A stretch of DNA of 63,004 nt, counting the filler, from Planctomycetota bacterium (GTDB lineage: Bacteria; Planctomycetota; Planctomycetia; JALXBF01), in assembly GCA_026991575.1 (NCBI GenBank). It is 2 parts of 2 records of this genome, joined end to end, with 100 filler letters (N's around TTAATTAATTAA, not from the genome) between each part and the next. Parts side by side here need not be neighbours in the genome. Positions count along the whole stretch, not along the records: positions 31,641 to 63,004 come from JALXBF010000002.1; 1 more part is not named here. The stretch is one strand, 5' to 3'. The notes below the pieces were generated by a model that saw nothing but the letters and a program-made list of their open reading frames with translations, searched no databases and was not told where the DNA came from. Position 1 is the stretch's first letter, and each line of letters starts with the position of its first letter. This document shows, piece by piece, positions 31,641 through 63,004 of the stretch. Both the position numbers and the translations under genes were made by a program.

Positions 31641-31652
31641 CTGGGAGGCCAT

Positions 31653-31778
31653 CCGGGACGTGTCCAGTCCGGTGACGTCCCGGATGGCCTCCCAGAGTGC
31701 GGCGCGCTCGGGATCGCGGGGCTTGCGCGCGCGCTTGGGTGGCTGCTCCGGCTCGGGCTCCGGGGAGCACTCGCGGGA
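31653..31778 (+). repeat. 126-bp direct repeat identical to 62879-63004 (circular overlap)
   Basis: CCGGGACGTGTCCAGTCC...GAGCACTCGCGGGA at both contig ends. Confidence 0.96.
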
Positions 31779-32453: not shown

Positions 32454-32482
32454 TTGGCATTTCTTTTCCGGGTAGCTACCAT
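32454..32482 (+). promoter_or_regulatory. Possible sigma70 promoter for integrase
   Basis: TTGGCA-N17-TACCAT. Confidence 0.45.
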
Positions 32483-32603
32483 GAGTTCGAAGTCACGAGA
32501 GAGCGGACTCGGTGGGCCGGGTGATCGCGGCACCCGGCGCCGGGTCCATGGCGGGCGTCACTCCGCCCGAGGCCAGCCCAAAGGCAGGCGGAGGAGCACG
32601 CGC

Positions 32604-33536
32604 ATGGGCCGCAACCGAGTCCGCAACACTCACCGTCAGCCTCCTTGTTCCGAACGCCCCTGGACCGTCCGAGAGGTGGTCCAGGCGTACCTGATCAACC
32701 GCGCCCGCGACGTCGAACGCGGGCTTCTCGCGCCACGCACCCTACGCGACTACCGCTGGGTGCTCGAGCACTTCTGCGACGCGTTTGGCTCTTGGCACAT
32801 CGACGCACTCAAGCCAGCACACGTCGTGCAATGGATCGACTCCCACGCCGGGTGGAAGAGCAATGCCCGCGTCGGGGGCGTTATCCGGGCCGTTAAGGCC
32901 TGCTTCAGCTGGTGGTCTAGGCTCTACGGAGAGCCACATCCCCTTTCCGGACTTCGTGCCCCGACGGCAGATCCTCGGAGACCTCTCCGTCCAGACGAGT
33001 TCGACGCGATCATGGACGTGTGCCGGTGTCCCTACACCAAGGGGGCTCTGCTGTTTATGTGGCTCACAGGGTGCCGACCGAAAGAACTCTGCGACATGCG
33101 TCGGTCGGACCTCGACGAGGTTGGTGGCGTCTATCTCGTCTGCCTCAGACAGCACAAGACGCGGCGACGAACCAAGAAGCTCAGAGTGATCGTCCTTGGT
33201 CAGAAGACCAAGGCCGTCGTTGACCGAGTGCTGGCTCTCGAGCCAAGAGCTCGTACCCACATCTTCTGTGGCCCTTCTGGTCGCCCGTGGAAGCGGGACA
33301 ACCTCAGTCGGAGGTTCGCACACCTCCGTCTTCTGGCAGGTGTTCCCCCAGACGTGACCCTGTACAGCATCCGACACGCTGCCGCGCTGCGTGCCTATAG
33401 GGCCGGGGTAGACGGGCAGGCCCTTGCCGACTACCTCGGAACCTCGCCACTGGTTCTGGACCGGTACTACCTGTCCCAGTCCCGTGAGATCATCATCCGC
33501 CTTGCCGCAGTGGCGGAGGTTCTGGAAGCCGACTAG
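32604..33536 (+). CDS. int: Tyrosine integrase
   Basis: TGCRPKE (Arg), HKT (Lys), YSIRH, LG and YY; SAM-like N-terminal region; GGAGGAG RBS before ATG 32604. Confidence 0.92.
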   Translation: MGRNRVRNTHRQPPCSERPWTVREVVQAYLINRARDVERGLLAPRTLRDYRWVLEHFCDAFGSWHIDALKPAHVVQWIDSHAGWKSNARVGGVIRAVKACFSWWSRLYGEPHPLSGLRAPTADPRRPLRPDEFDAIMDVCRCPYTKGALLFMWLTGCRPKELCDMRRSDLDEVGGVYLVCLRQHKTRRRTKKLRVIVLGQKTKAVVDRVLALEPRARTHIFCGPSGRPWKRDNLSRRFAHLRLLAGVPPDVTLYSIRHAAALRAYRAGVDGQALADYLGTSPLVLDRYYLSQSREIIIRLAAVAEVLEAD

Positions 33537-33570
33537 GCCGCGTCCGTCGCACTCCGAGTTCTCCGCATTC

Positions 33571-33630
33571 GCCGGATTCAAAATCCGGTGGGGTTCACCC
33601 CCCGTGCGGGTTCGACTCCCGCCTTCGGCA
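33571..33630 (+). other. 3' part of tRNA-Leu(CAA); putative attP core
   Basis: Anticodon arm CCGGA-TTCAAAA-TCCGG, long variable arm, T arm GCGGG-TTCGACT-CCCGC, 3' acceptor strand CTTCGGC-A; no 5' GCCGAAG or D arm; 34 nt after int stop. Confidence 0.85.
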
Positions 33631-33692
33631 TTGGAAAAAGGGGCGGCGCCGGAGCGGACCCGGCGCCGCAAGGAAGAAGGAGGGCAAAGCTG

Positions 33693-46947: not shown

Positions 46948-46955
46948 CAGGTCCC

Positions 46956-47825
46956 CTAGGTCACGACCAGGTCGTCGCCGGTGCTGTCCGGGTCGAGCTG
47001 GGCCAGGAAGGTCACGTCAGCGGTGAGCACGCCCGCCAGCGGCCGACGTACCTGGAAGTTCTGCACGTCGCAGCGGGCTTTCATGTCGAGTGAGAGGGTA
47101 TTCGCACCGCGGGCGAAGTCCAGCTTCAGCGACGCCAGCCCCCCAGACTCGAACTTGTCCAATAGGCCCGTGTCCTCGAACACCAGCGTTAAATCGCAAG
47201 TCACCTGGCGGGCCGTCCACATCAGCCACTGCAGGTCCGGCCCGACACCAATGCCTTCGTCCAGCGTATTCGCCACCCGTAGGTTGAAGGAACGCACCCG
47301 TGCGTTCGCAGAGCCCTCCACCGTGTAGGTCCCCTCCAGAAAGAGGTACGGGTCCTCTTCGGTGTAAGTCCCCTCCGACCAATCCGTCGTGGTGCTGAGC
47401 TGCTTGCCAACGAGCTCAAGCTCCAGCTCCAAGGGCTGGTTCTCGGCAGCGGCCGCGAGCGTTAGATTGCTCACCTTCAGTCCATTCAGCTCGACCGCGC
47501 GGACGCCGTCGCGGAACCGGGCCGAATAGCTATCCAGGTCGTAGTTTGTGAGCTTAGTGCCCCAATCGATCAACTCTTTGGCCGTACCCGGAAAGGCCCA
47601 CGTTCGTAGCGTGGCCTGAGCACGTTTCACACCGAGTACCGTCCGCCATGGTCGGCCATGGCCGATATTCGTCATCAGCAGTGTTCGGTTCGGTGTGTAG
47701 GAGTAAGCAAACCAGTCATCACCACGTCCGATGATGGTCTTCGGCGTGGTCCACCCCGGTGACGTGCCCCACGTTGTTTCCTTGGCAAGCTCCAGCCAGC
47801 TCTGGTGTCCCGCGACAATCGGCAT
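46956..47825 (-). CDS. Major tail tube protein
   Basis: AKETTWGT N-terminal motif; beta-rich 289 aa; position. Confidence 0.8.
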   Translation of the reverse strand: MPIVAGHQSWLELAKETTWGTSPGWTTPKTIIGRGDDWFAYSYTPNRTLLMTNIGHGRPWRTVLGVKRAQATLRTWAFPGTAKELIDWGTKLTNYDLDSYSARFRDGVRAVELNGLKVSNLTLAAAAENQPLELELELVGKQLSTTTDWSEGTYTEEDPYLFLEGTYTVEGSANARVRSFNLRVANTLDEGIGVGPDLQWLMWTARQVTCDLTLVFEDTGLLDKFESGGLASLKLDFARGANTLSLDMKARCDVQNFQVRRPLAGVLTADVTFLAQLDPDSTGDDLVVT

Positions 47826-47827
47826 GG

Positions 47828-48301
47828 CTAGGTCTCCGGTATGCTGATGACCACGTCCAGCAGAACGCTACCGACCAGGTAGCGCTCGGCAGGGCGCCCC
47901 CGCAGCTCCGGCGCCGGGCCACGTCGCACGGCCCACTCCCGCGCGCCGGCGCTCTGCAGCGTCTGGTAGTTGGATCGCTTCAGGAACACGGCCCGGACCA
48001 CATGCATCAGCCCGAGCAGATCAGCCACGTGCCAGCCCGGCGAATAGACGTCGATACGGATTGACAGCGTCTCGCCATACTCGCGCTGCGATAGCCATTC
48101 GCTCGGAGCGTCCTCTAGCGCCACCCGGTACGCCGGCAGCTGGGCCTCCGGGATCGGGTCTTCCGGCTCGTCGTACTCGCCTTCCCACGCGTAGGCGCGC
48201 TTGAAGGCGGTCGACACCTGGGCATCGTTCTTCAGCAGGTCGAGCACTGCCTTCAGCAGCGTCCACTCCGGCGAGCTCAGGTTGTTACGGCGTTGTGCCA
48301 C
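47828..48301 (-). CDS. Putative tail terminator protein
   Basis: Position before tail tube; LPAYRV...IRIDVYS pattern. Confidence 0.6.
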   Translation of the reverse strand: MAQRRNNLSSPEWTLLKAVLDLLKNDAQVSTAFKRAYAWEGEYDEPEDPIPEAQLPAYRVALEDAPSEWLSQREYGETLSIRIDVYSPGWHVADLLGLMHVVRAVFLKRSNYQTLQSAGAREWAVRRGPAPELRGRPAERYLVGSVLLDVVISIPET

Positions 48302-48959
48302 GGGCGAATCCCCGCACGCGCAGCTGAGCCTCTATCTGTCGCTGCGCGATCTCGATGACTTCGGCGATGTCCGACTCGTCGAGGCCGAAGAACTCACGCT
48401 TGGGTAGCCCCGGGTGTCTGACGCGGCGTGCAAAGATGCCCTGCGGCTCACCAGCCACCACGGGCACCGCACTCAGCCGCTTGCGGCCACGCGGACGACG
48501 CATCCGTCCACCCGCCACGATCGGGATCCGCAGCACAGTTGCCTGGCACTCGCCCCCGCCGGGGAGGATCGTGTAGGGTTGCGTCCCGCTGTTGTGATAG
48601 CTTGCGATCCTCTCGGCTCCCGGGTCGCTGAAGAACACACGACCGCTCTGTGCCGACCACGCGTACGTGAGTGCCTTGAGCATGCGGCCCGTGTCCTCCA
48701 GGATGTGGCCCGGGCCACGTACGCGCGCCGGCAGTCGCCTCTGGCCACACTTCGGCTTCGGCCGCGCGCTGCGGATCGTCGATTCCTTGAGCGGCGTGAA
48801 CGGACGACCGTTGACGTCCACCCCACGCTTGCGTGTGCGCTCCAGGATCCGGGTGCGCACTCGACGGGCCGCGTCCCGGTGGAACGTGGTCTTGTCCAGT
48901 ACCGCCAGCTGCCGGATTGTGCGGCTCAGACCCTGAGCCCCCCTGATCACTAGGGGCAT
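48285..48959 (-). CDS. Phage virion morphogenesis / tail completion protein
   Basis: GRPFTPLKEST, ILEDTGRM, YHNSG, LPKREFFGL. Confidence 0.8.
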   Translation of the reverse strand: MPLVIRGAQGLSRTIRQLAVLDKTTFHRDAARRVRTRILERTRKRGVDVNGRPFTPLKESTIRSARPKPKCGQRRLPARVRGPGHILEDTGRMLKALTYAWSAQSGRVFFSDPGAERIASYHNSGTQPYTILPGGGECQATVLRIPIVAGGRMRRPRGRKRLSAVPVVAGEPQGIFARRVRHPGLPKREFFGLDESDIAEVIEIAQRQIEAQLRVRGFARGTTP

Positions 48960-49159
48960 CACTTCTTCCTCCGCCGCCGGCGCAGCCGCATCAGTGTCAG
49001 GGCCAGCCGCGCCCGGGCGCCGACCTTGTCTTTCCGCTTGGCGGCCCGCCGGATCAGCGACACCGGGATCTTGCGCCCCTCGGGGATACCCAGATCCCGG
49101 TGCAGCTGACCGGGGCGTTTGATCGCCCGCTGAATCCACCGCGCGCGTCGCTTAGCCAC
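48959..49159 (-). CDS. Small highly basic phage protein
   Basis: WIQRAIKRPGQLHRDLGI...KIP...RARLALTL; coupled to neighbours. Confidence 0.75.
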   Translation of the reverse strand: MAKRRARWIQRAIKRPGQLHRDLGIPEGRKIPVSLIRRAAKRKDKVGARARLALTLMRLRRRRRKK

Positions 49160-49161
49160 GT

Positions 49162-49902
49162 TTACGCCCTCGTAATCCGACTGCTGCGGCAACTGACGAC
49201 CAGGTCCGCGTATCCGTCGTGGTTCGTGTCGATGCGGGCAGTCAGGTTCCGGACCGCTTCGCGTGACTGCCTCAAGAACTGCTCCGCCAGCGTGTCGAAC
49301 CGATCGCCCGCTTCGGTGATCTGTGCCTGGCAGATCAGGCTGAGCGCGTAGTAGACCGACGCGCGACGCACCGCCGGGTCAACCAAGAGCCCGCCACGTT
49401 CCAGGTACTCCTCGACCGCGGCGTAGCTGTCACCGGAGCGGGCCAGGATCTGCTCGTCCAGCCAGCGACGGGCCGCCAGCAGGATCTTGCTCAGGTCCTG
49501 CTGCCCGTAGCCCGTCAGCAGCATCGACTGCGCCCACGGCACCACGTCGTAGATGTCCTGCTCGGTGATGTAGGCGTCCGTGGGCAACCGGACGGCTGGC
49601 ACGTCGATGTAGAACGTCTGCCGGTCGACCTCCCCGCTGGTCTGGGTCACCTCGACGGCCGCTTCGTACTGGATACCCAGCTCGGGGGGGCGGAAGACGT
49701 ACTCGTAGACGCCGGTAGACTTACGCGGCACGGCTGTGCCGGCGGGCACCACCGTGGCGCCGGTGTCGGTCCGCCGGATACCCCAGGTGCTGGAGGAGTC
49801 GCGCAGCACCACGGACGTGGCGTCCGCCAGCACGCCGTCCACGTAGTTGTGCACGACGATCTTCCGCTTGCCGCGGTCGACCGTTACCCGCCACTCAGCC
49901 AT
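49162..49902 (-). CDS. Head-tail adaptor with N-terminal Ig-like domain
   Basis: Follows capsid gene; beta-rich N half (TGVYEYVF), then YITEQDI...AARRWLD helical adaptor. Confidence 0.6.
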   Translation of the reverse strand: MAEWRVTVDRGKRKIVVHNYVDGVLADATSVVLRDSSSTWGIRRTDTGATVVPAGTAVPRKSTGVYEYVFRPPELGIQYEAAVEVTQTSGEVDRQTFYIDVPAVRLPTDAYITEQDIYDVVPWAQSMLLTGYGQQDLSKILLAARRWLDEQILARSGDSYAAVEEYLERGGLLVDPAVRRASVYYALSLICQAQITEAGDRFDTLAEQFLRQSREAVRNLTARIDTNHDGYADLVVSCRSSRITRA

Positions 49903-49906
49903 CGGG

Positions 49907-50809
49907 CTACGTCGTCGTCGTATGGATCTTCACGCCCAGTGCATCCTGGGCCACCTTGACACCCCACAGGCTCTCGATCGTCACCCGGACGCCGCCGCGC
50001 CGCGAGTCGTAGCTGGTCGTGGCACGGATGGCGAAGTTGCCCCGCGAAACGGTGACACTCTTGGCACCAAGCCCATCGGGTGCATCTGGCAGGCGACGGC
50101 TCAACAAGATGATGGCATTGCGGTGGAATAGCAGGTTTGCGAAGGCATTACTGCCACCGACCGTCTCCGTCGGAACGAAACTCGATCGGAAGAAGTTCAG
50201 ACCGTAGCGTCGGTTGATGAGCCCTTCCTTGAGGGCCACGCCACCGTCGTCCACGGTGTGGGCCTGCATCAGGTTCCAAAGCTGCAGCAACTCTGCCTCT
50301 TGGTTCGGGTGGAGAACCACATGGACATTGCGATCCATGGGGCCCTTGTTCGTGATGTACGTCTTGCGGGCCTCCAGAATGAGGGACTCAGTGATGTTCG
50401 TTGTCGCGTCCCCCACAGCGTTGGTGAACGACGTGAACAGGTCCGCGAGACTGGACTCGATCTGCTGGGCAATAGCCTGGGCGGCCGGTTGGATGAACAG
50501 CTCTTCCAGGCTGTCCAGGCTCTTGGCACGCTCCGCGTCCTCGAACACGTAGCTCACGTAGTAGTGCTGGTCCAGCAGGACCGCCACGTCCGTGAGCTGA
50601 GCGTCCGTGTCGGTGTAGTCCGTTCCTACGGTCTTCGCGGCAGCGGTCGGCACGGTGGGTACGCGAGTGTGCACCGTATCGCCGTATTGAGCCACCGCAT
50701 CGTCGAAGTCACGGTTGACCAGGGCGCCCAGAACCAGTTCGTCGCCCAAGAAATCGAGTGTGCGCCCGGCCCACATTTCCGGAATGGCAGCGTCGATCAC
50801 GTTTGGCAT
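49907..50809 (-). CDS. Major capsid protein (HK97 fold, P22-coat-like)
   Basis: IPEMWA, LVNRDFD, GDTVH, G-x-I-x2-YGLNFF, FHRNAI, LWGVK. Confidence 0.9.
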   Translation of the reverse strand: MPNVIDAAIPEMWAGRTLDFLGDELVLGALVNRDFDDAVAQYGDTVHTRVPTVPTAAAKTVGTDYTDTDAQLTDVAVLLDQHYYVSYVFEDAERAKSLDSLEELFIQPAAQAIAQQIESSLADLFTSFTNAVGDATTNITESLILEARKTYITNKGPMDRNVHVVLHPNQEAELLQLWNLMQAHTVDDGGVALKEGLINRRYGLNFFRSSFVPTETVGGSNAFANLLFHRNAIILLSRRLPDAPDGLGAKSVTVSRGNFAIRATTSYDSRRGGVRVTIESLWGVKVAQDALGVKIHTTTT

Positions 50810-50856
50810 AGCACGTACCCCAAGCGCAGAAGGAGTGCGTTGCTACGCCCGCAGGT

Positions 50857-50897
50857 AGATGGGACGGCCAGCTCGAGATGGGACGGCCTGACGGCCT
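50857..50897 (-). repeat. 13-bp direct repeats in the capsid leader
   Basis: AGATGGGACGGCC (+ strand) at 50857 and 50876, partial GACGGCC at 50890. Confidence 0.7.
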
Positions 50898-50955
50898 CGG
50901 CCGCGACTGCGGCGACGCTGGCCTCGCGCTCCCCCCCGAGGAGAGCCTCTGCAGG

Positions 50956-51540
50956 CTACTCGTCCTTAATGCGGCCCTCCGCGATCGCCCGCCGAATGTC
51001 GCGCTCCAGCTCTTGGTCCCGCTCCTTCGGCGGCCGCGAGAAGAACTCGCGGAGGAAAGACCGCGTGTAGATCTGCTTTGTCGGCCCTTCGGTGGGCCTC
51101 CGCGGCTCCGGCCCCTGGCCGTTGGAGCCCGCGAACAGGTACGGCTTCTTCTCACGCAGCTCGCTCAGTGCCGACTTCAACTCGTCGTCACTCTCAGGGA
51201 GCTCGTCGAACTTCTCCGCGACGTATCGGACGATGTCGTCGACAGCCCCCTGGTGCGGTTTGAATTCCGCCGCGAGCTGCTCGATCCGGCGGCGCCGCTC
51301 GATGGCCTGGAGCTGTGACTTCAGCTCGTCACGCTCCCGGGCCGTCTCCTCCAGCTGCTTGCGGAGTTGCTCCAGCTCCTGCGGGTCGGTCTTCGACGAC
51401 TCAGCCTTGAGCTTTTCCAGCTCTTCGGCGACGCTGACGAGCTCTTCTTCGAGCTCCTTCTTTTGCTTCTTGAGCCGCCGGATGACCGCTTCGCGTTCCC
51501 GCAGCTGGTTTCTCAGCTCCGCTACCAGCTCCTCGCTCAT
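50956..51540 (-). CDS. Capsid scaffolding protein
   Basis: Long coiled coil, KPYLF motif, directly upstream of capsid gene. Confidence 0.85.
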   Translation of the reverse strand: MSEELVAELRNQLREREAVIRRLKKQKKELEEELVSVAEELEKLKAESSKTDPQELEQLRKQLEETARERDELKSQLQAIERRRRIEQLAAEFKPHQGAVDDIVRYVAEKFDELPESDDELKSALSELREKKPYLFAGSNGQGPEPRRPTEGPTKQIYTRSFLREFFSRPPKERDQELERDIRRAIAEGRIKDE

Positions 51541-51760
51541 CGAGCGTCTCCAACCGGACAGGCACCGCTTCCGCTGCGTCGCCGAACTGTGCTCTCACCA
51601 AACGTCGTGCTTCGGCGACAGCCCACTCGCCCGACGTGGCCTCCACGCTGTAGCAGTAGACATTGGGCTCTTCGTCGGGCTTGCGGACGCGGTGCAACCA
51701 CGCCAGGGTCTGCCCCGGCCCACACCGTACCCTCATCCAGACTCTATACCGATGGGTCAT
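51401..51760 (-). CDS. Hypothetical protein (3' end overlaps scaffold gene)
   Basis: ATGA-coupled to upstream gene; last ~45 codons overlap the scaffold gene. Confidence 0.5.
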   Translation of the reverse strand: MTHRYRVWMRVRCGPGQTLAWLHRVRKPDEEPNVYCYSVEATSGEWAVAEARRLVRAQFGDAAEAVPVRLETLDERGAGSGAEKPAAGTRSGHPAAQEAKEGARRRARQRRRRAGKAQG

Positions 51761-52131
51761 CGCTGTCGACGCGCAGAAGTGGCTGCTTGTTCGCGTTCCC
51801 GCTGCCGACGGAGGTAGTCCTCGGCCCAGGACACGACCAGCTCGACGATGTCCTTGCGGTCGGTGAGATTGCTGTGAACATCGTTCTTTGTGATTCCTAC
51901 CGTCGGTACCCCAGGTGAGTGAGCCGCTGGTGCCGCGGACACGATGCCCAATTCCCTCAGAATGGGCTTAGGGATAGAAGCAACTAACTTCGTCCCGGAG
52001 CGAAGTATGATGACCACGTACGGTTCAAGTTCGTCCTCTACGGCATACCAGTCGACGATGGGATCTTCCATGCTGGCTTCCTTGATGCGGTAGAACCTAA
52101 TCCCGTCTTTTTCGGCTACCACCTGGCTCAT
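51757..52131 (-). CDS. Hypothetical protein, candidate immunity protein
   Basis: ATGA-coupled to the MuF-effector gene; shares its AT-richer codon usage. Confidence 0.65.
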   Translation of the reverse strand: MSQVVAEKDGIRFYRIKEASMEDPIVDWYAVEDELEPYVVIILRSGTKLVASIPKPILRELGIVSAAPAAHSPGVPTVGITKNDVHSNLTDRKDIVELVVSWAEDYLRRQREREQAATSARRQR

Positions 52132-54860
52132 GGTTCGACACCTCGTTCCCTCAGCATTGTAACGACCGATCGCACCGTCTGGCCGGTCGTGACAGTGCCA
52201 GCGTACGTGCCGGCAACGCCATGCAGAAGCACGACAAGTTCGTTTTCATGTGGTGACAAGAAGCTCGAGAACTCGTTGTCCTCCCTGCCAACCCAGTACA
52301 CCATCCACACTCTGTTGAGTGGCACACGGTACAGGACAGCGTGATTGCCTCCAGGAGTGACTGCGTGCCGGATTGACGCAGACTCGTAGACAGCGTGCTT
52401 GGCAAGCAGGATACGATAACCGACTTCCAGAATCGTACCCTCCCCTGCAACAGGAGTGCCCTCCGGGCGCCGGATATCTGTGGCATTGCTCACAAGCATT
52501 TGAGGATCAGACCACGTTCTCACCACTAGCAGCGATCCACGTGACTTGACGCTGGAAGGCACTCGCTTGACGTTCAGGTTCCGTAGCGTCCACGCATGCT
52601 GTGCTGATATAGCTTCCTGAACAACTTCGTCGGGGACGTCAGCGGCGCTGGCAAGAAGCGCAACTGCACCCCCAGCGGCGTCCACTTGGTCGAGTACGAC
52701 CCTGGACTGTCCAGACCAGAAAAACGACTCTCGTTCATTCCCCAAGAAGGTCCTGAGAATGTCCCGAGCGGCTACGGTGTTCGGATGATCGGCGGTTATG
52801 CCATGGCCGGTACTCACCAATATCGGAACCTTGTACGCACGTGGGTGAATGCCGGCAAAGAACCGCTTGTACTCGTCAAACATCTCTTCGTGGTAGCTCT
52901 TCCCGCTGGGCGTCCGCGCCTTGCCGTCCGGCCCGATCTTCAGGCGCCTCGGTTGCCGCACCGCCGTGGCCCGCATGTAGTGCTTGCTGACGCTATCGAC
53001 GTAGGACTCCGTCCAGTTCAGCGAATCCCGCTCGAAGTCCCGGATCACGCGCACCGTGTCCGCCATGTTCCGTGCCCGGGCACGTAGCTTGGCCTTGAGA
53101 TCGGCCGGGAGCGGCAAACGCGTGAGCTTTCGTGGGTTGACCCGGCGTGCCAGCTTCGGGATTTCCCACACGCTGATCTGCCCGAAGACGCTGGCCGCCT
53201 GCGGGTTCGTGTTCTGATCCCGCAGTGTCCACAGTTCCATCACCTGCTCACCGAACTGGTCCCCCTTGGGTGCCCCCTGGGCCCGGTATCGCAGCGCGCC
53301 ACCTGCATCGATCCGATACACCTCGATCTTGCGGCGGCCCTTGCGGCCCGGCCCCACACGCACCAGGATGTTGTCGCGGGCCAGACCGATCACGTCCCAG
53401 TTCGCAAGCCACGCATCCACCGCGAACCCCTTGCGGATCTCGCGTAGCACGCGCTTTTGCTCGCCCTTCGAGAGCTGGTTCCAAATACCAGCCAGGGTAT
53501 CCACACGGCCACCCGGTTCGGGCTCGATGTACACCGAGAGTTTGACCGCCGAGCCGTCGGGCTGTGTGTACAGCCTGCTCGGTGGGACGCGGATGCCCAT
53601 GGCACGGTAGACCTCTTCGGCGTAGTACTCCTCGCGGACGTGGTCCCCACCCCTTTTGAGCACGTACTTTCGGCCCCACTGGTCCTCGACCAGCTGCGGG
53701 GACGTAGAGCCGGGTAGGGTCCGCAAGACGCGCAGGTTCGTCGGGTCATCGGGGAACTCCGGTGCGCCGGCTGGAGCGGGCGGCCGGGGCGGTGGTCCGG
53801 ATGGCGGGGGCAGCGCGAGTGCACGACGTGGCCCGGGCAGCGCCAGCGGCGGTCCGGCCACGCGATACCGCGGCCCACCGCCGGGGGATGCGGGCTGCAG
53901 GCTGACCAGCGGCTGGCCGGTGCGTGTGGCCCACCGGTTCAGTAGCTGCTCCAGCCACGCCACATCGCGGAGGTGCTTCTTGTAGATGTCGCCCTCCGCA
54001 GGCACCGGGTAGAACAGCCCGCGCTCCCCGTAGTGCAGTCTGCCCTTTTGCCAGTCCGGGTGGATGAGCTCCCAGTACTCCGGCGTGAAGATGCGACCGA
54101 TGAAGTCGCGGCTACCGTATCCCGGCTGCCCCCCCTTGCGGGGATTCGGCCCGGCAAACGCCGGGTGGATCAACCCGGGCGGATTGGCGCGTGTGATGTC
54201 CTCGACGTTGTGCTCGTCGACGATGCCGATGTGCAGGTAGAGCTTTGCCCTCACCTGCTTGCCGAATTCGGTGAGAGCCTGTGCGAAGAACTGGCCGATG
54301 GCCTCGGCGTACATGCGGGCCACGCGCTTCTCGCCGCGGATGGCCACCAGCTCGTCTTGCACTGCGGTGACCAGCTCTCCGAGCGATCTGGCCCGGTGCA
54401 GCGCGTCGGTGATGCGGGACGTGATGCGGTCAATGTGCCACGATTCGATATCCCGCACCACCCGGTCCAGCCACTGGCGGGCCGCTTGCGGAATGCTGAC
54501 CGGGGCACCGCCCCAGAAGCGGTCCGAGTAGTCACGCAGGTGGTCGAGTGCGATCTGCTCCGCAGAGCGGCGCATGAAGGGAATGACCTGCCGGACGACC
54601 ACGTCGCCCGCGGCTGTGAGCAGCCGGCGCACATCGGACTCCGCAAACCGGATTGCCCGGCGGGTAGCGGGGCTGTCGACTACGCGTTCGTCGTCGTCCA
54701 AGTCGACCTGGTAGCGCGAGACGAACTGATCGATGAGCTTTCGGATGCGGTTGTGGGCCGATTCGTAGACGGGCAGGATGGCAGCACGGACGTCCGAGAG
54801 CAGCTCAAGCTTCAGGCGCCCCTGGTCGGCGAACTGCAGGACGTCTCGCAGTTTGGCCAC
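52128..54860 (-). CDS. MuF-like minor head protein fused to a kinase-like domain and an ADP-ribosyltransferase-like domain
   Basis: Lies between portal and scaffold; LHYGERGLFYP (degenerate MuF HxxCRC); GSTSP...YVLK...EEY, DAWLANWDVIG...DNI, RIDAGG; C-terminal R...ESAS...ENE. Confidence 0.72.
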   Translation of the reverse strand: MAKLRDVLQFADQGRLKLELLSDVRAAILPVYESAHNRIRKLIDQFVSRYQVDLDDDERVVDSPATRRAIRFAESDVRRLLTAAGDVVVRQVIPFMRRSAEQIALDHLRDYSDRFWGGAPVSIPQAARQWLDRVVRDIESWHIDRITSRITDALHRARSLGELVTAVQDELVAIRGEKRVARMYAEAIGQFFAQALTEFGKQVRAKLYLHIGIVDEHNVEDITRANPPGLIHPAFAGPNPRKGGQPGYGSRDFIGRIFTPEYWELIHPDWQKGRLHYGERGLFYPVPAEGDIYKKHLRDVAWLEQLLNRWATRTGQPLVSLQPASPGGGPRYRVAGPPLALPGPRRALALPPPSGPPPRPPAPAGAPEFPDDPTNLRVLRTLPGSTSPQLVEDQWGRKYVLKRGGDHVREEYYAEEVYRAMGIRVPPSRLYTQPDGSAVKLSVYIEPEPGGRVDTLAGIWNQLSKGEQKRVLREIRKGFAVDAWLANWDVIGLARDNILVRVGPGRKGRRKIEVYRIDAGGALRYRAQGAPKGDQFGEQVMELWTLRDQNTNPQAASVFGQISVWEIPKLARRVNPRKLTRLPLPADLKAKLRARARNMADTVRVIRDFERDSLNWTESYVDSVSKHYMRATAVRQPRRLKIGPDGKARTPSGKSYHEEMFDEYKRFFAGIHPRAYKVPILVSTGHGITADHPNTVAARDILRTFLGNERESFFWSGQSRVVLDQVDAAGGAVALLASAADVPDEVVQEAISAQHAWTLRNLNVKRVPSSVKSRGSLLVVRTWSDPQMLVSNATDIRRPEGTPVAGEGTILEVGYRILLAKHAVYESASIRHAVTPGGNHAVLYRVPLNRVWMVYWVGREDNEFSSFLSPHENELVVLLHGVAGTYAGTVTTGQTVRSVVTMLRERGVEP

Positions 54861-54866
54861 TCTTCA

Positions 54867-56174
54867 TCACTCCGTCCCACCCAGCGGAGCCAGCTCAATG
54901 CGGTCTTGGCGGATCTCGGCCAGCCGTTCGCGTGCTTCGTCCTCCGTCACACCAGGGTGCAGCTCCATGTACACGTCCACGGGGCTGGTCAGACCGCGGT
55001 CCAGCTCCCACGTCTTGCGCTGCACCCACTCCGAGTCCTGGACGGGTAGCTGCGGGTCGAGCCACTGCAGTCGGATAGACATGTCGTCCGGGCGCTGCGG
55101 TGCCGGGAGGTTCTCGTGTGCTTCGAGCAGCACCGCGATCACCCAGGCCAGACGGCGTTCGTAGGCCTCGAAGAGCCGCCCCCTCAGTCGCCGCTCCATG
55201 ATGAGCGGCAGCTGCTCGGCGACGATCGATACGCCGCTTCGGGCGGCTGTCTGCTCCAGCCGGTAGACCGACAGCGGCACTCCGTGGCTGGCCAGCGTCT
55301 GGTTGAGCAGCCAGTCGACGTACCGCATGACCTGCTCGGTGGCCACGGACGGTGACAGCACGCTGATCTCGCCCGCTTCGTCCAGTTCGACAATCCGGCC
55401 CGGGCCGATCTCGACGGCGCCGGCGATCCCCTTCGCCACCCACTGCCCGTAGTGCTGGATGCTCAGCGCGTAGGCGTGGTCCGTGAGCAGCTGGTTGATG
55501 TGCCAGTTGAGCGGGCAGAGCGACGGACCCAGTCCGGGCGTCCAGAACGACGTGTGCGGGACAGTGTTGTGTGCGGCGACGAACGGGAGCGTGCGGTAGG
55601 GTACCTCGGTCTGCGAGACCAGCTCCCAGCGGTCCTGTCCGCGGCGGTACTCACGGATCGTGCCGTCCGCGTACTCCGGGCTCGACCAGATCTGCACCGT
55701 GTCGCGGTCAAGGATCGCCAGGTACTGCGGCTCCTCCGGCTGGCCGGGCACCGGCCACACCTCCACGACGTCGGCAGAGAGCAGCGTCAGGCGAATGCGG
55801 CCGTCCCGATACGACACCCCCAGGAGCGCTGCTCCATGCAGCCGCGTGTATCGATCCCACGCCACGAACGTGGGCCCACGCAGCCGTTGGTAGACCTCGG
55901 TGAGCCGCTCCGCCAGCCGTGTGTCTACGTCGGTCCATTCACGCAGCGGCTGTTCCCAGTACAGTCCGCTGAGCAGGTCGATGACGGGACGGGTGACGTT
56001 GAGCGTGACCTTCGGCTGACGGTCCCACTCATCCTTGGTCGTGCCCTCCCGGGGCCGGAGGAACTCGAGCAGAGCTCCCTCATACGTGCGACGGAACGCG
56101 ATCGCGTCGCGCATCCGCTCGGTCGGGTGCGCCCCAGCTGCGATCCACGCCCCGATCTCCGTCCAGTCGGCCAT
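54867..56174 (-). CDS. Portal protein (SPP1 gp6-like)
   Basis: YEG, LNVTRPVID, LPFV, SGVSI; 435 aa; follows terminase. Confidence 0.85.
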   Translation of the reverse strand: MADWTEIGAWIAAGAHPTERMRDAIAFRRTYEGALLEFLRPREGTTKDEWDRQPKVTLNVTRPVIDLLSGLYWEQPLREWTDVDTRLAERLTEVYQRLRGPTFVAWDRYTRLHGAALLGVSYRDGRIRLTLLSADVVEVWPVPGQPEEPQYLAILDRDTVQIWSSPEYADGTIREYRRGQDRWELVSQTEVPYRTLPFVAAHNTVPHTSFWTPGLGPSLCPLNWHINQLLTDHAYALSIQHYGQWVAKGIAGAVEIGPGRIVELDEAGEISVLSPSVATEQVMRYVDWLLNQTLASHGVPLSVYRLEQTAARSGVSIVAEQLPLIMERRLRGRLFEAYERRLAWVIAVLLEAHENLPAPQRPDDMSIRLQWLDPQLPVQDSEWVQRKTWELDRGLTSPVDVYMELHPGVTEDEARERLAEIRQDRIELAPLGGTE

Positions 56175-56183
56175 TCGTTACCC

Positions 56184-56849
56184 CTACACGATGCGATGTG
56201 GCCAGCGGTCCTCCCGGATCGGACCGCTGTAGCGCACTCGGCCGCTGCGCCGCCCGACGGCGAGCCATGCGGCGATGGATGCGGCCAGCACCAGGTCGTC
56301 GTGCTCGCCGTCTCGTGCAGCGTATGACTCGCGTGCCCCCCGAGTCGACGCGCGAAACGCGCGCATCTCACGGATCAGGACCTCGGCATGCTGGACGCCG
56401 CGCGCCAGTCGGATGGTGCCGCGCTGGAGGCCCGCGACCAGCGCGCCGATCAGGTCCTTCTTGGGCACGTTCCATCCGTGGGCGGTCCGTCGGGCCATCT
56501 CCCCGGCAGTGATGGTGATGGCGCACATGTTGACCCACGGCCAGAGGTGCCGGCGCTCCAGAAGCATGTCGACCACCGGACGACCGACGCCGGTGGCGTC
56601 GATGCCGAGCCGAATGCCCCCCATCATTTCGGCGCGGCGCAGCAGTGCGACGACATCTGCGACGATCTGCGTGTACGGTGTCTGCAACTCCCAGCGGCGC
56701 AGATAGCGGATGGCCCAGATCCTGCGGCCCCGGTCGTCCCGGTAGGTGCGCTGCATCAGGCACAGCGCGGTGTAGTCGGCAGCCTGGCCAAGGTCCAGCC
56801 CACCGACCCAGCAGTCGTCAGACCGGCTCCCACGCAGATACTTTCTCAT
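56184..56849 (-). CDS. Terminase large subunit, nuclease (RNase H-like) domain
   Basis: GLDLGQAADYTAL, IDATGVG, HDDLVLA. Confidence 0.9.
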   Translation of the reverse strand: MRKYLRGSRSDDCWVGGLDLGQAADYTALCLMQRTYRDDRGRRIWAIRYLRRWELQTPYTQIVADVVALLRRAEMMGGIRLGIDATGVGRPVVDMLLERRHLWPWVNMCAITITAGEMARRTAHGWNVPKKDLIGALVAGLQRGTIRLARGVQHAEVLIREMRAFRASTRGARESYAARDGEHDDLVLAASIAAWLAVGRRSGRVRYSGPIREDRWPHRIV

Positions 56850-57543
56850 CGGTGAACGCTGCCAGCATCTCGTCGGTGAACACTGCGCCTTCCAGATCCA
56901 GGAACTCGCACAGGTACTCCTGTGCGAACCACCGCTCGCCCATTTCCAGGCGCTCCTCTGCGAGGAATTTCGTGTCCATCCGGGGGCAGTCGTCGGCGGT
57001 CACGCGGATGCGCTGCCAGTGGTTGCCCCCCTCTGCCCATGCTCGGTAGAACCAGCCGCGCTTCCCGCGGGGGGTACTGATGGCGATCAATCGGCCCCCG
57101 GATACTGCGAGCATGGGACGGACGCTGTAGTACGTCTCGTCTGGCACCGCGGCAGCCTCATCGACGACGATCAGGTCCACGGCCGAGAACCCCCGGATCG
57201 TCTGCTCGCTGCCGGGCAGAGCGATGATGCGGCTCCCACCTGGCAATTCCATCCGCAGCACACTTTCGGCATCCGTGTCCACCGGGCGCCCTGCCGCGGC
57301 GTAGAAAGCCCGCACCTTCCGCATCAGCTCGGTACTCTGGCGCAGCGATGGCGCCACGAGCAACACCGTGGCACCGTCACGACGAAGAGCGGTGGACAGT
57401 GCCAGGGCTGCGGTAGCGGTGCTCTTGCCCGCCTGGCGGCAGGACAGCACCAGCACACGGTGGTGTGGTGTCTGTGCCAGCTCGGCCTGCCACGGGTCGG
57501 GCTCCATCCCGGCCGCGGCAAACAGGGCGCACGGGTCTAGCAT
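56818..57543 (-). CDS. Terminase large subunit, ATPase domain
   Basis: PDPWQ, RQAGKS (Walker A), IVVDEA (Walker B), ISTP, FAQEYLCEF; TGATG coupling to terS. Confidence 0.92.
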   Translation of the reverse strand: MLDPCALFAAAGMEPDPWQAELAQTPHHRVLVLSCRQAGKSTATAALALSTALRRDGATVLLVAPSLRQSTELMRKVRAFYAAAGRPVDTDAESVLRMELPGGSRIIALPGSEQTIRGFSAVDLIVVDEAAAVPDETYYSVRPMLAVSGGRLIAISTPRGKRGWFYRAWAEGGNHWQRIRVTADDCPRMDTKFLAEERLEMGERWFAQEYLCEFLDLEGAVFTDEMLAAFTDEKVSAWEPV

Positions 57544-58079
57544 CACGGCAAGTGTCCATGCTGCCGCAGCACGGTCAGCACTGCCTGGCGTGCCTCGGGG
57601 TAGGGTTCCAGTGCTGCTGCGATTTGTCTGGCGATGTGTAACCATTCCGGCTGGGTGTGGTCGCGGTACATCCTGTAGACCAACTCCAACACTTGGCGTG
57701 CTTCCCTGATGGCAATGCACATGTGGCCCGGCTGAGTGGCCGACTCAGCCAGTTGCAGGGCCTGCATCGCCTTCTGGTACAGCATCTCCAGCTCGGCGAC
57801 GATCCCGGCCAGGTTCCGACGCTCCTGCTCTGCGGCCGCCACGAGCATCCTTTGCCCCATGTGGCGGTCCCGGTGCCTGCGGAGCGTGGTTTCGCTGACG
57901 CCGTGAGCCCGGGCGGTTGCCCTGATGCTCTGCCCTTGTGCGATGGCGTGTTCGATGGCAGTCCTGTGCGGGTGAGTGCAGACCCGACAGCGTGGTTCTC
58001 TCGGCGGTGAGTTGCTTGGCGAGGCGGAGGACGACCGCTTCGATTTCCTGCTCCGCCTGCCTGATCGCTTCGTGCCCAT
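57543..58079 (-). CDS. Putative terminase small subunit
   Basis: CRVC-HP plus HTH (SIRATARAHGVSETTLRRH); directly upstream of terL. Confidence 0.7.
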   Translation of the reverse strand: MGTKRSGRRSRKSKRSSSASPSNSPPREPRCRVCTHPHRTAIEHAIAQGQSIRATARAHGVSETTLRRHRDRHMGQRMLVAAAEQERRNLAGIVAELEMLYQKAMQALQLAESATQPGHMCIAIREARQVLELVYRMYRDHTQPEWLHIARQIAAALEPYPEARQAVLTVLRQHGHLP

Positions 58080-60262: not shown

Positions 60263-60814
60263 TCACGTTGGTGGACCGGCCGGGGCAGCGGCGCTGAGCC
60301 CACCACTGACGCCCCACACTACGCCGGCCACGCTCCCGCCGGGTAGTACGACCGCTGCGCCGCTGTCCCCTTGCCGGACCCTCCCCACGACCCAAAACAG
60401 CTGCTTGCACGTGCGGACGATGCGACGTCCCGTGTAGCGCGCGGGCACTTCGGGCTGTCCGACCCGGTAGAGCACGGCGATGTCAGCACACTGCCCCGGT
60501 AGCGGCCGGACGAAGCGCACGGCAGGCACGCTGTGGGGGGGCACGTGGAGGTACGCCACGTCGGTGGAGCCGTCGGAGTGACAGGTGGACGCGTTCACGG
60601 AGCAGTGGCTGTGGCGCACGACGATGGACGTGCCCCCCCGGACAACGTGCGCTGCGGTCAGCACATGCACGGGGTCGACGATGTAGCCGGTGCCGATCTG
60701 GAGGATGTTCCCGCGACGTGCTTCGACCACGACGATCCGCTGCGGGTCCGGGGCTGCGGACCCGAACCGGGCCAGACTGAGCAGGATGGCGATGGATGCT
60801 ACGATGCGGCCCAC
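60263..60814 (-). CDS. Secreted trypsin-like serine protease
   Basis: Signal peptide; LTAAHV, DVAYL and GDSGA catalytic triad motifs. Confidence 0.88.
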   Translation of the reverse strand: MGRIVASIAILLSLARFGSAAPDPQRIVVVEARRGNILQIGTGYIVDPVHVLTAAHVVRGGTSIVVRHSHCSVNASTCHSDGSTDVAYLHVPPHSVPAVRFVRPLPGQCADIAVLYRVGQPEVPARYTGRRIVRTCKQLFWVVGRVRQGDSGAAVVLPGGSVAGVVWGVSGGLSAAAPAGPPT

Positions 60815-61377
60815 GCGATGGCCCTCCGCGTTGCTGCGCGGCGCAAGTAGTGCACGGCGTTGTGACGCGAGAAAACGGCCACGTTCCGGTGCGCCGCTCT
60901 CAGATTTCCGTCACGGAAGATGGGACAGCTAATCAGGTCGATCCAGCTCCACACGTTGACCCAACGCTCGATCGTGCTTGGCCTGGCAATCGGTGGCAGT
61001 GACAACGGTACGAGCTCACGCTCCGCGTAGACCAAAGGGCTACCCAGTGTTACCAGTCGGTGGTTGCCCTTGGCGAAGTACTTGAGCGCCTTGTACGCGA
61101 TGATCGAGCCGAGTGAGTGAGCTACGATCAGCGCAGGACCGCGGGTATCGGCGATCTTTGCGAGCTCTTCGGGTGTCGCGTCGCCGATGATGTGCCCGAC
61201 GTCCTCCAACCATGCTCGAACGCGTTCCCACCATCTACGCGGGCGCACGGAAGCGTCCCATGTGTACGGCAGCAGCCGGACGTTCCCCCCTACGGCGGCT
61301 CGCAGGTACCTGAGCCACGGTACCCACCAGCCGAACTGCCGCACTGAGCCCATTCCGTGCACCAGCACCACGTGCAT
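60799..61377 (-). CDS. Alpha/beta hydrolase (lipase/esterase-like)
   Basis: VLVHGMG, AHSLG, LVTLGSP, D-L-I and C-terminal His. Confidence 0.88.
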   Translation of the reverse strand: MHVVLVHGMGSVRQFGWWVPWLRYLRAAVGGNVRLLPYTWDASVRPRRWWERVRAWLEDVGHIIGDATPEELAKIADTRGPALIVAHSLGSIIAYKALKYFAKGNHRLVTLGSPLVYAERELVPLSLPPIARPSTIERWVNVWSWIDLISCPIFRDGNLRAAHRNVAVFSRHNAVHYLRRAATRRAIAWAAS

Positions 61378-61446
61378 GACTTGGTCTCCGAACTCACCTA
61401 ATCGCTACCGCGCGTTCGGCCGAAAGTCGACGCGCAAAATGCGTCA

Positions 61447-61746
61447 CTATGCGCCGCTTGGGACGGGCTCCGGCTGGGGCGGTTCGTACTCGATGACCTC
61501 GCCCTCTCGGTAGTGCGGGTGGTGGGAGACCACGATCACACCGCCACCGAGCTTCGGGTCGTAGAAGCAGATCACAGCCCCGGCAGAGCCGTGCAGCTTG
61601 TGCAGCATCATGCCGTAGCGCCAGGTGGGCGCCCGGCCGCCGACGATCACAATGCTGCCCGGTGGCACGTGCGGCACCTCCGGTAGCGGCTCGTCGGGCG
61701 TGATGGGTCGGTCGACGCCGATGTCGACGTAGACGATCTCAGCCAT
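61447..61746 (-). CDS. csx3: Csx3/Crn3-family cyclic oligoadenylate ring nuclease-like protein
   Basis: VIVGGRAPTWRY, HKLH, YDPKLGGGVIVVSH and EGEVI match the Csx3 pattern (GRxPxW, HxxH, YDPRLG, VxSH); 99 aa; GGAGG RBS. Confidence 0.85.
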   Translation of the reverse strand: MAEIVYVDIGVDRPITPDEPLPEVPHVPPGSIVIVGGRAPTWRYGMMLHKLHGSAGAVICFYDPKLGGGVIVVSHHPHYREGEVIEYEPPQPEPVPSGA

Positions 61747-62050
61747 GTTGGTCCTCCGATCTTGCCAGGGTTTCGAACGTAGTGAGTCTCATGACGACAA
61801 CAGGTTCGCACCGGTCTGCCCAGAGCACCAGTGCGTCCACGCCATCCAGCCAACGACGAATGGTCTGCCAGCCGCTGGAACGCGCCTTCAGCTCGATCCG
61901 TATCGGCGGACGCTCCACCACCACATCGCAGCGTGCCTCGCCTGCGGACCCACTGAGCGGCACACGTCGTGCGGGTATGCCCGCGGCGCGCAGCCGCCGG
62001 ACGAGCTCGCGTTCGCGTCGCACGCCTTTTGCTCGTTCACGCCTGCCCAT
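61739..62050 (-). CDS. Holliday junction resolvase (Hjc-like PD-(D/E)xK)
   Basis: KGVRRERE, RVPLSG, D...IELK. Confidence 0.85.
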   Translation of the reverse strand: MGRRERAKGVRRERELVRRLRAAGIPARRVPLSGSAGEARCDVVVERPPIRIELKARSSGWQTIRRWLDGVDALVLWADRCEPVVVMRLTTFETLARSEDQHG

Positions 62051-62607
62051 CAGAACGGCACCTCCTCTGCCTGTCTGCGGCTCGCGCTGATCGGCTCCGC
62101 TTCGCCCTGCAGGCACATCCAGTGGCCGTGCTCGGACAGCTGGAGCTCGAGCAGCGTGCCACGGGGGTCACGGGCGGCTGCCATGTCCCGCCACTCGCGC
62201 AGCAGTTCGACGGTCGGCTGCATGTCGCGCATGTGGCACCACCAGTGGAAGCGGCAGTACCACGGTCCCTGCCCGGACGTGGAAGCGGTGTGCACGCCCG
62301 GCATCGTGCACCGTCCCCAGGAGCAGCGCTCGTAGTCCACGCGGCGGGTGTTCTCGCCGCGGGCCGCAGCGCGATCACGCGCGATCTGTGCTACTGCCAC
62401 CGCGTGGTCCGATGCCGACCGCGGTCTCAACTCGGGACGCCGGTATAGATCGTCACTGGCCGCGGTGGCATCCGCGATGGAGACGTCCGCAAGGATGCGG
62501 GCAATGGCGTCCCGCACCTCGTCGCCGCCACGCTGCACGTAGGCCGCGAACGCCGGAAAGAGTTTCCCGTGGCGGGTAATCCAGAGTTGCACCTCAGCTG
62601 GCGTCAT
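62050..62607 (-). CDS. Hypothetical replication-module protein (possible helicase loader)
   Basis: Directly downstream of initiator; Cys/His cluster; EEVPF C-terminus. Confidence 0.55.
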   Translation of the reverse strand: MTPAEVQLWITRHGKLFPAFAAYVQRGGDEVRDAIARILADVSIADATAASDDLYRRPELRPRSASDHAVAVAQIARDRAAARGENTRRVDYERCSWGRCTMPGVHTASTSGQGPWYCRFHWWCHMRDMQPTVELLREWRDMAAARDPRGTLLELQLSEHGHWMCLQGEAEPISASRRQAEEVPF

Positions 62608-63004
62608 CGCTACCCTCCCGCTTGCGCACCCACTCAGCGAGCTGCTTGTCCAGGTCCTCGTAGACCTGCGCGTAGTAGTCCTTCGGCTTCCCGTTCACCC
62701 TGACCGGCTGTCGCCTGACCAGGTCGATGTGCTTGGCTATGGCCTCTGGGGTGAGGCTTGCTGTCCAACCGAGCTCCTGGAGCACCTCGGCAAGCCGCCG
62801 CACTTCGGCGGCCGTGTACGGCGGGTCAGCCTCGCGGAGCTCGCGGATCGCCTTCTGGATGCGCTTGCAGCTGCGCGGCCGGGACGTGTCCAGTCCGGTG
62901 ACGTCCCGGATGGCCTCCCAGAGTGCGGCGCGCTCGGGATCGCGGGGCTTGCGCGCGCGCTTGGGTGGCTGCTCCGGCTCGGGCTCCGGGGAGCACTCGC
63001 GGGA
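62594..63004 (-). CDS. Phage replication initiator, C-terminal part
   Basis: Reads ...VTGLDTSRPRSCKRIQKAIRELREADPPYTAAEVRRLAE..., in frame with 31653-32411 through the overlap. Confidence 0.8.
   Translation of the reverse strand, partial: SRECSPEPEPEQPPKRARKPRDPERAALWEAIRDVTGLDTSRPRSCKRIQKAIRELREADPPYTAAEVRRLAEVLQELGWTASLTPEAIAKHIDLVRRQPVRVNGKPKDYYAQVYEDLDKQLAEWVRKREGSDDAS

Follow-up and report, generated by a model that had tools for sequence, protein, structure and literature searches.

A Csx3/Crn3-family gene on a temperate phage of a planctomycete genome bin: a candidate ring nuclease against type III CRISPR signalling

Why should a phage carry a gene whose relatives mostly lie beside type III CRISPR genes? 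The question is raised by a small gene in a genome bin of a Planctomycetota bacterium (GenBank assembly GCA_026991575.1; 4.96 Mb in 191 contigs). The window, the whole stretch of DNA that was analysed, is 63,004 nucleotides long and comprises two contigs of this one bin joined by N, C1 (1-31540) and C2 (31641-63004; 31,364 bases). C2 is a temperate tailed phage, and the gene in question, a stand-alone csx3/crn3-like open reading frame (ORF) of 99 residues, occupies 61447..61746 on its minus strand, where it is identified by the PF09620 profile, the alignment with AF1864 and the fold. The first-pass annotation had proposed that the phage captured a host off-switch to quench signalling by cyclic tetra-adenylate (cA4), the type III CRISPR alarm signal that cells degrade with Csx3/Crn3. 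Family, fold, conserved residues, phage context and the type III loci of the host make it reasonably probable that the gene encodes a Csx3/Crn3-type cA4 ring nuclease acting against type III CRISPR signalling, the mechanism itself being inferred. Membership in the Csx3 family, a temperate phage without cas genes and a putative host with type III systems and intact cyclase motifs all support that proposal; on host capture the evidence is divided.

The phage protein is a genuine member of the Csx3/Crn3 family by profile, fold and catalytic residues, as the first-pass annotation had it. Its match to the PF09620 Cas_csx3 profile reaches 66.7 bits against a gathering cut-off of 21 (E 1.7e-18, profile positions 4-78 of 78), and the Pfam scan of the protein found nothing beyond Cas_csx3. 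Five distinct chain sequences of A. fulgidus AF1864 (AfCsx3) in the PDB match it with E values of 2e-10 to 4e-9. From a 60-row alignment, AlphaFold2 gave a model with a mean predicted local distance difference test score (pLDDT) of 94.2, and all 13 Foldseek matches of this model at E<=0.001 are AfCsx3 chains (TM 0.70, rmsd 2.0 Å, identity about 30%), the best being 6VJG, 3WZI and 6YUD with a probability of 1.00. The next match after the Csx3 chains is the cA4-binding Cat1, at E 0.14. DUF1874, the family of AcrIII-1/Crn2, appears neither in the Pfam scan nor among the fold matches at E<=0.001; AcrIII-1 is, as stated at first pass, an unrelated fold.

The active-site residues can be followed by counting along the AF1864 alignment, with the offset checked against ten residues named in PMC7371418. 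On the His face, H57, H60 and H80 of AfCsx3 correspond to H49, H52 and H76 of the phage protein (H75 if a gap is moved by one). On the Asp face, D69 is kept as D63 and R71 is replaced by K65, the Arg to Lys exchange in the DPR motif that had already been noticed at first pass. I22, G45 and R46 are kept as I15, G37 and R38, and two short insertions distinguish the phage copy in the alignment. By this alignment, the catalytic His and Asp residues are kept in the phage protein. Lys occupies the R71 position in 4 of the 65 cas-linked homologues (Arg in the other 61), in 3 of the 11 viral rows, which represent two distinct sequences, and in 9 of the 76 motif-bearing representatives (82 of 158 representatives fell outside the motif pattern). 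Judged from these sequences, Lys in place of Arg71 is tolerated in cas-linked copies. The homodimer prediction scores 0.73 against 0.00 for the best control, with at least 97% of contacts agreeing between runs and a partner pLDDT of at least 83. Among proteins solved as same-chain pairs, 20 of 30 reach the mark for a homodimer, compared with 1 of 23 among those solved as single chains. The predicted interface is the helix that bears H49 and H52. Because the AfCsx3 dimer has already been solved, this pass may reflect mere likeness to it.

The gene looks like an intact coding member of a phage operon. The motifs GRAPTW, HKLH, YDPKLG and VVSH can all be read in the ORF, and its composition is coding-like (G+C of 0.87 at third codon positions, GC3, against 0.44 at second positions, GC2). 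A Shine-Dalgarno sequence, GGAGGA (61752..61757, minus strand), read from the sequence, lies 5 nucleotides before the ATG (61746-61744), within the end of the gene upstream, whose stop codon (61741-61739) overlaps csx3 by 8 nucleotides. That gene (61739..62116, minus strand) encodes an Hjc/RusA-like Holliday-junction resolvase (PF01870 Hjc, 23.6 bits; phrog_244 RusA-like resolvase, E 6.5e-12). Thus the ORF, the strong ribosome-binding site, the overlap with the resolvase gene and the four motifs of the first description are all present. A scan of 60700-63004 gave no site resembling a promoter or terminator, which fits co-transcription of csx3 with the operon, although the test is a weak one. 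A variant of the gene about 94% identical occurs in contigs of run X2, which belongs to another study (record 13; 19 differing letters in 338 nucleotides), and the protein P0001 is 98% identical to the phage Csx3. The X2 variant of the region keeps csx3, has a 190-nucleotide skip in the resolvase gene (61758-61949) and, further upstream (62364-62717), has a 352-nucleotide stretch replaced.

A second tailed phage in the same bin shows the same operon without csx3. This contig, C9 (30,245 bases), has an HK97-type head, protease, portal, terminase large subunit (TerL) and tape measure genes. Its structural module differs from that of C2, while the early region is common to both: an ORF at the junction of the C2 contig ends, the ORF next to it, the resolvase, the hydrolase, the protease, two small ORFs and the nuclease have homologues of 42-61% identity, and a 311-residue ORF (35353-36288) is shared in addition, at 39% identity, which makes nine shared proteins. 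The hydrolase, an alpha/beta-hydrolase-like protein encoded next downstream of csx3 (60799..61377, minus strand; Abhydrolase_6, 23.3 bits, below cut-off), is 60.7% identical to its C9 copy. In C9 only 69 nucleotides separate the resolvase stop from the hydrolase start, with no csx3 in between. Since the same resolvase-hydrolase junction exists without it, csx3 appears to be an accessory cassette, present or absent at an exact gene boundary. Two genes downstream of csx3 (60263-60814, minus strand), a trypsin-like protease is encoded that has a signal-peptide-like hydrophobic N-terminus and is kept in C9 at 60% identity. C9 may be circular as well, since the two ends of the contig interrupt one head-tail adaptor gene.

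The attachment site of C2 ties the phage to the lineage of its bin. A tyrosine integrase gene (32454..33536, plus strand; phrog_1, E 1.9e-39; PF00589, 61.2 bits) is followed, 34 nucleotides past its stop, by a 64-nucleotide core of the phage attachment site, attP (33570..33633, plus strand), which is 98.4% identical to the 3' part of the tRNA-Leu(CAA) gene on contig C118 (blastn, ARAGORN and visual comparison). Outside the core, C2 and C118 differ on both sides, and the assembly shows the C118 site empty. This attP/attB arrangement at tRNA-Leu links the temperate phage to the host lineage of the same bin. ARAGORN finds no tRNA in the whole window, the attP being a tRNA fragment only; for C1, the analysis covered the spacer and tRNA scans.

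The same biochemistry could serve lysogeny instead of lytic counter-defence, by damping type III autoimmunity or dormancy caused by prophage transcripts and thereby stabilising the prophage or benefiting the host. The integrase and the attP for the host tRNA-Leu agree with such a role, as does the position of crn3 in an element of Pyramidobacter (described below), two genes downstream of a Cro-like helix-turn-helix (HTH) regulator gene, which in turn is divergent from a LexA-family repressor gene. In C2, however, csx3 lies within the replication/recombination operon, coupled to the resolvase gene, a position that suggests expression in lytic growth, and the weak promoter test found no site of its own, so that a primarily lysogenic function is considered quite unlikely.

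The other features of C2 are those of a tailed phage. The scans covered all 33 called ORFs with PHROGs and 32 of them with Pfam, together with the N-terminal piece of the junction ORF, and the gene content includes an HTH regulator, a P22-like major head protein, a staphylococcal-type nuclease and the trypsin-like protease. The structural and packaging module, with tape measure, tail tube, neck, major head, scaffold, portal and TerL genes (PHROGs, Pfam), occupies 44866..57720 on the minus strand. The junction ORF is cut by the contig end: its C-terminal part (62594..63004, minus strand, 411 nucleotides), whose C9 homologue matches replication-initiation PHROGs, joins in frame with its N-terminal part at the opposite end (31641..32411, minus strand, 771 nucleotides); the joined frame has 394 codons, and its one stop is at the end. 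Run X1 has a contig that extends 1,821 nucleotides past 63004. On these two grounds the 31-kb circle described at first pass is likely, whether the genome itself is circular or the assembly is circularly permuted, although no overlap or repeat was found between the ends of C2, nor any overlap with the ends of other contigs. The description of C2 as free of cas genes and arrays holds: Csx3 is the only cas family matched among the called ORFs, and the arrays detected in the repeat scan all lie on other contigs. A 225-nucleotide stretch upstream of the scaffold gene (51523-51747) is 92% identical to C122:26506-26728, about 440 nucleotides from a tRNA-Arg(TCT) gene, and the C122 stretch may be the remnant of a related prophage.

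The host bin encodes type III systems that such an enzyme could oppose. It has three type III loci: C183, with a Cmr2 of 891 residues, Cmr3, Cmr5 and RAMPs; C32, with a Cas10-like protein of 549 residues and five RAMPs; and C27 (L109:6575-15366), with a Cas10-like protein of 552 residues and fused RAMPs of 801, 602 and 804 residues. The C27 architecture is reminiscent of the fused-Cas7 subtypes, and no effector was found adjoining it. The GGDD motif is kept in all three Cas10 proteins. Three adaptation modules, including a reverse transcriptase (RT) fusion, RT-Cas1-Cas2, are present too, along with four CRISPR arrays (C47, C96, C182 and C187) with a common 37-nucleotide repeat and 46 spacers. 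Cas3 is encoded as well, which indicates that a type I system is also present. As csx3 lies on the genome of a phage whose attP leads to a host with three GGDD-bearing type III loci, it is virus-encoded in the way expected of an anti-CRISPR gene. The whole-bin search for Csx3 returned only two copies, that of C2 and one on C74 (L110:1485-2900, plus strand), a Csx3 domain fused to a P-loop ATPase in a protein of 471 residues. Over 59 residues, this domain shares 31% identity with the phage Csx3, and it has no HxxH motif, which rules it out as the source from which the phage gene was captured. Because it has neither HxxH nor cas neighbours, the C74 protein may be a sensor and not a nuclease.

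Relatives of the phage protein are found mainly in CRISPR loci and, in a smaller number, in viruses, so that the comparison of neighbourhoods suggested at first pass gives both kinds. A search of 1.84 billion representatives gave 260 representative clusters of the family at E<=0.001. In a collection of one genome per species, 133 stretches have relatives, of which the best 80 were retained, mostly from Planctomycetota and Methanothrix. In the 86 loci compared, 708 ORFs were called no further than 4 kb from the homologue and fall into 353 groups; the Pfam scan of neighbours covered 135 cluster representatives and singletons and 84 further ORFs. Cas genes lie within 4 kb in 64 of the best 80 of the 133 genomic loci, or 65 if the RT-Cas1 of L066 is counted; the number of cas-linked copies is at least this large, because most singletons fell outside the Pfam scan and many contigs are short. 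Their usual order is Cmr3-RAMP-Cmr5-RAMP-Can2/Card1 (or Csx1)-Csx3. Can2/Card1 and Csx1 are cA4 effectors.

About nine relatives lie in phages or proviruses. None of the six IMG/VR loci with Csx3 has cas genes, and all six carry phage genes (L026, a near-copy of L025, stood outside the PHROGs scan). By PHROGs, L021 has portal, TerL, terminase small subunit (TerS), capsid and tail genes; L022, on the same contig as L054, has TerL; L023 has a primase-helicase; L024 has a recombinase, clamp loader, SbcCD, resolvase and helicase; and L025 has a holin, endolysin, helicase, ParB and integrase. Among the genomic loci, L032 is a Methanothrix provirus with tail fibre, baseplate J and integrase genes, and the viral-like L041 and L091 have TerS and a replication initiator, and VRR-NUC, a DnaC-like loader and a replication initiator, respectively. 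No C2 protein except Csx3 matches any of the 86 loci, which means that C2 has no synteny with the other Csx3-bearing elements. Scans of viral and metagenome contigs with the single protein found no relative, while an alignment query did find relatives; likewise, tblastn against 50,697 deposited phage genomes (E<=1e-3) gave no match, a single-sequence search that a distant Csx3 could escape.

The origin of the phage gene is less clear-cut than its family. On a quick tree the viral copies are scattered, and their end branches are long: the 9 viral rows have a median of 0.70 and the 65 cas-linked rows one of 0.20 (p 0.0006, one-sided Mann-Whitney test). By this measure viral Csx3 copies evolve faster than cas-linked ones. 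The end branch of the phage gene is 0.99-1.13, and long-branch effects on its placement are likely. The quick tree had pointed to a recent capture from a planctomycete cas locus. This was withdrawn, because constraining the phage gene to group with L021, L083, L025/L026, L041 and L074 gains 39 units of log-likelihood (lnL) over the quick free search (p-AU, from the approximately unbiased test, 0.90), for a group named after the tree was seen, and because a careful tree keeps the phage gene out of the cas-linked clade.

The careful tree, rooted with an outgroup, has 72 rows and 97 aligned columns, and its resolution is poor because the protein is so short. A branch with support 97/98 holds all 36 cas-linked rows and five viral rows, with the phage gene outside it. 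The phage gene forms a group (support 92/81) with P0005, P0007 and the podovirus-like L021 from IMG/VR, and the nearby L083, L041, L074 and L025 are none of them cas-linked. A tree in which the phage gene is made to join the cas-linked clade is only 2.7 lnL worse (p-AU 0.47). In raw identity it is closer to the cas-linked L027 (61%) than to L021 (55%). Of the captured host off-switch of the first-pass annotation, then, the bacterium's own C74 copy is excluded as donor; for descent from another host, the best tree would favour virus-borne copies, yet a placement among cas-linked copies is not rejected. Capture may well have happened elsewhere in the family: the Csx3 of the L032 provirus is 81% identical to the cas-linked L077, which lies on another contig of the same Methanothrix metagenome-assembled genome, and the grouping of L032, L077 and L093 (support 98/74 in the careful tree) makes this copy look like a host-to-virus transfer.

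A bolder, and unlikely, proposal is that Csx3 has a virus-borne lineage, passed between phages unrelated to one another, in which the active site has been retuned and the enzyme is dedicated to countering type III CRISPR. The marks of this lineage, put forward just as tentatively, would be Gly at S44 and, in the phage copy and some other members, Thr at I49, Lys at R71 or a GGG insertion. As the lineage branches below the cas-linked clade in the rooted tree, the off-switch of Planctomycetota and Methanothrix may itself derive from viruses. A viral origin of the cellular form was reportedly proposed earlier for Crn2/AcrIII-1.

Several observations weigh against a cA4 ring nuclease directed at type III immunity, and each is best considered with the alternative that it favours. 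The first concern the protein itself. The equivalog cut-off of the NCBIfam model TIGR02579 is narrowly missed (53.9 against 55.4 bits), so functional equivalence by that model is not automatic. S44 and I49 of AfCsx3 are replaced by G36 and T41, and Arg71, Lys in the phage, is termed absolutely conserved in PMC7371418, which describes R71A as highly reduced and the inactive H60A variant of AfCsx3 as forming filaments with cA4. The phage protein could accordingly be a cA4 sponge, or a filament former of slow turnover, which binds cA4 between stacked dimers, cuts it poorly because of K65, G36 and T41 and protects the phage by sequestration. The change of three ligand-contact positions and the faster evolution of viral copies are consistent with this idea. 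However, every catalytic His and Asp is retained, Lys can still contact phosphate, and the cas-linked copies with Lys are expected to be functional off-switches; a sponge therefore seems unlikely, and the cleaving enzyme remains the preferred reading.

The second group concerns the target. The bin was to be searched for cas10 and CARF effectors; cas10 is there three times with its GGDD motif, but no canonical CARF effector was found beside the type III loci. The only CARF-effector candidates bin-wide are weak ones, a protein of 499 residues on C162 with co-linear sub-threshold matches to CARF_Card1 (22.4 bits) and Card1_endonuc (22.6 bits), and one of 535 residues on C27 that matches Csx1_HEPN with 25.1 bits (cut-off 23). 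A tblastn search of the bin with the Card1 and Csx1 proteins of related loci gave no match, and neither did searches for PF09651 and SAVED, which are little informative since their controls were silent too. With no clear cA4 effector adjoining these loci, a different substrate has to be considered. It could be a cyclic nucleotide signal other than cA4, or RNA 3' ends, in keeping with the deadenylase activity, dependent on Mn, that was the first to be described for AfCsx3 (cited in PMC7371418). Nevertheless, later work (PMC7371418) places cA4 in the site formed by residues kept here, and the closest relatives of the gene adjoin Can2/Card1 and Csx1. Another substrate is thus improbable, and cA4 is the one assumed in what follows.

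The third group concerns the link between phage and host. The 46 spacers of the bin give only chance matches of up to 15 nucleotides to C2. A perfect match to a 36-nucleotide stretch of C2 (58713..58748, 0 mismatches) does occur in a 96-nucleotide contig of run X4, which shares its study, though not its sample, with the probable source run. There the 36 nucleotides are flanked on both sides by the same CRISPR-repeat-like 30-mer, which matches the 37-nucleotide repeat of the bin at 25 of 30 positions by eye. We read this contig as repeat-spacer-repeat, which would mean that a related host acquired immunity to this phage; the spacer is not assignable to type III, because the host has Cas3 and type I as well. 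The host link of C2 rests on binning and attP. If C2 were mis-binned and its true host had no type III signalling, or if csx3 were a decaying, neutral hitch-hiker, the gene would be a passenger or an artefact, and the long end branch and the 191-contig assembly would be understandable. The intact ORF with its strong ribosome-binding site and high GC3, the existence of the X2 variant and of P0001, and the match of attP to a tRNA gene of the same bin all speak against this, and it is very improbable.

If the preferred reading is correct, the Csx3 of the phage would act early. The gene would be transcribed with the early replication and recombination operon and its translation coupled to that of the resolvase. 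In the dimer, the helix of residues 41-52 would place H49 and H52 at the twofold axis, and two dimers would stack head to tail around cA4 made by the Cas10 of the host. A Mn-dependent site would then be formed by the His face (H49, H52 and H75/H76) of one dimer and the Asp face (D63 and K65) of the next, and would cut cA4 to linear A2. Loss of the signal would stop the activation of CARF-type effectors, so that type III immunity would be blunted in infection or after prophage induction.

Viral ring nucleases are a main route by which phages defeat cyclic-oligoadenylate signalling, and the families reported from viruses so far, in the texts available, are AcrIII-1, AcrIII-2, Csx16, Csx20 and Csx15. 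In a survey of 28,114 phage genomes with hidden Markov models that include Crn3 (PMC12409355), AcrIII-1 was found in 36, Csx20 in 4 and Csx16 in 2; Crn3 is not among the phage matches listed in its main text, supplement S1 aside. The accessible portions of PMC12830947, PMC13148439 and bioRxiv 10.64898/2026.10.26.761840 do not mention viral Crn3, and no printed report of a phage-encoded Crn3 was found in the full-text searches on Csx3/Crn3 in phages, viral genomes and prophages. In vivo, Crn3 gave only partial protection according to PMC8284326. The gene described here would thus be a member of a known enzyme family in a context unreported in print, with a distinct residue signature, and on its sequence it is a credible candidate anti-CRISPR gene. 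If this is true, a phage-borne Crn3 adds a metal-dependent, tetrameric enzyme of different catalytic design to the viral repertoire. The phage genome, its sister without csx3, a host with three type III loci, the attP/attB pair and the environmental spacer together form a natural test bed, and the exchange of Arg71 for Lys and the faster evolution of viral copies provide concrete hypotheses on how an off-switch might be retuned into a weapon.

Each of the known systems resembles this gene in its own way. AfCsx3/Crn3 (AF1864; PDB 3WZG, 3WZH, 3WZI, 6VJG and 6YUD) shares its fold, its predicted dimer and the equivalents of H57, H60, D69, H80, I22, G45 and R46, whereas the phage copy has no cas neighbours, has Lys, Gly and Thr at R71, S44 and I49 and carries the two insertions. 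The cas-linked Csx3 proteins of Planctomycetota and Methanothrix type III-B loci (L027 and L077, for example) are similar in length and motifs, with up to 61% identity; unlike the phage gene, they follow Cmr3-RAMP-Cmr5-RAMP-Can2/Card1 or Csx1, carry Glu at the position of G36 and in most cases retain Arg at R71. AcrIII-1/Crn2 (DUF1874) has the same proposed role, that of a virus-encoded cA4 degrader blunting type III signalling, but its fold is unrelated and it is metal-independent, according to PMC12409355. Csx16 and Csx20 (PMC12409355), the viral SAVED protein AcrIII-2 (PMC12751052) and Csx15 in IMG/VR prophages (bioRxiv 10.64898/2026.10.26.761840) are likewise cellular ring-nuclease families on viral genomes, though different families from Csx3. 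A parallel in context is the crn3 gene of the Pyramidobacter sp. YE332 'plasmid' NZ_CP133039.1, an 18-kb linear record with holin, Rha, integrase, LexA-type repressor and DNA polymerase genes. This gene, auto-annotated as 'CRISPR-associated ring nuclease', is 48% identical to the phage copy and equally stands alone on a phage-like element without cas genes, although the element is a different one and its host belongs to another phylum, Synergistota.

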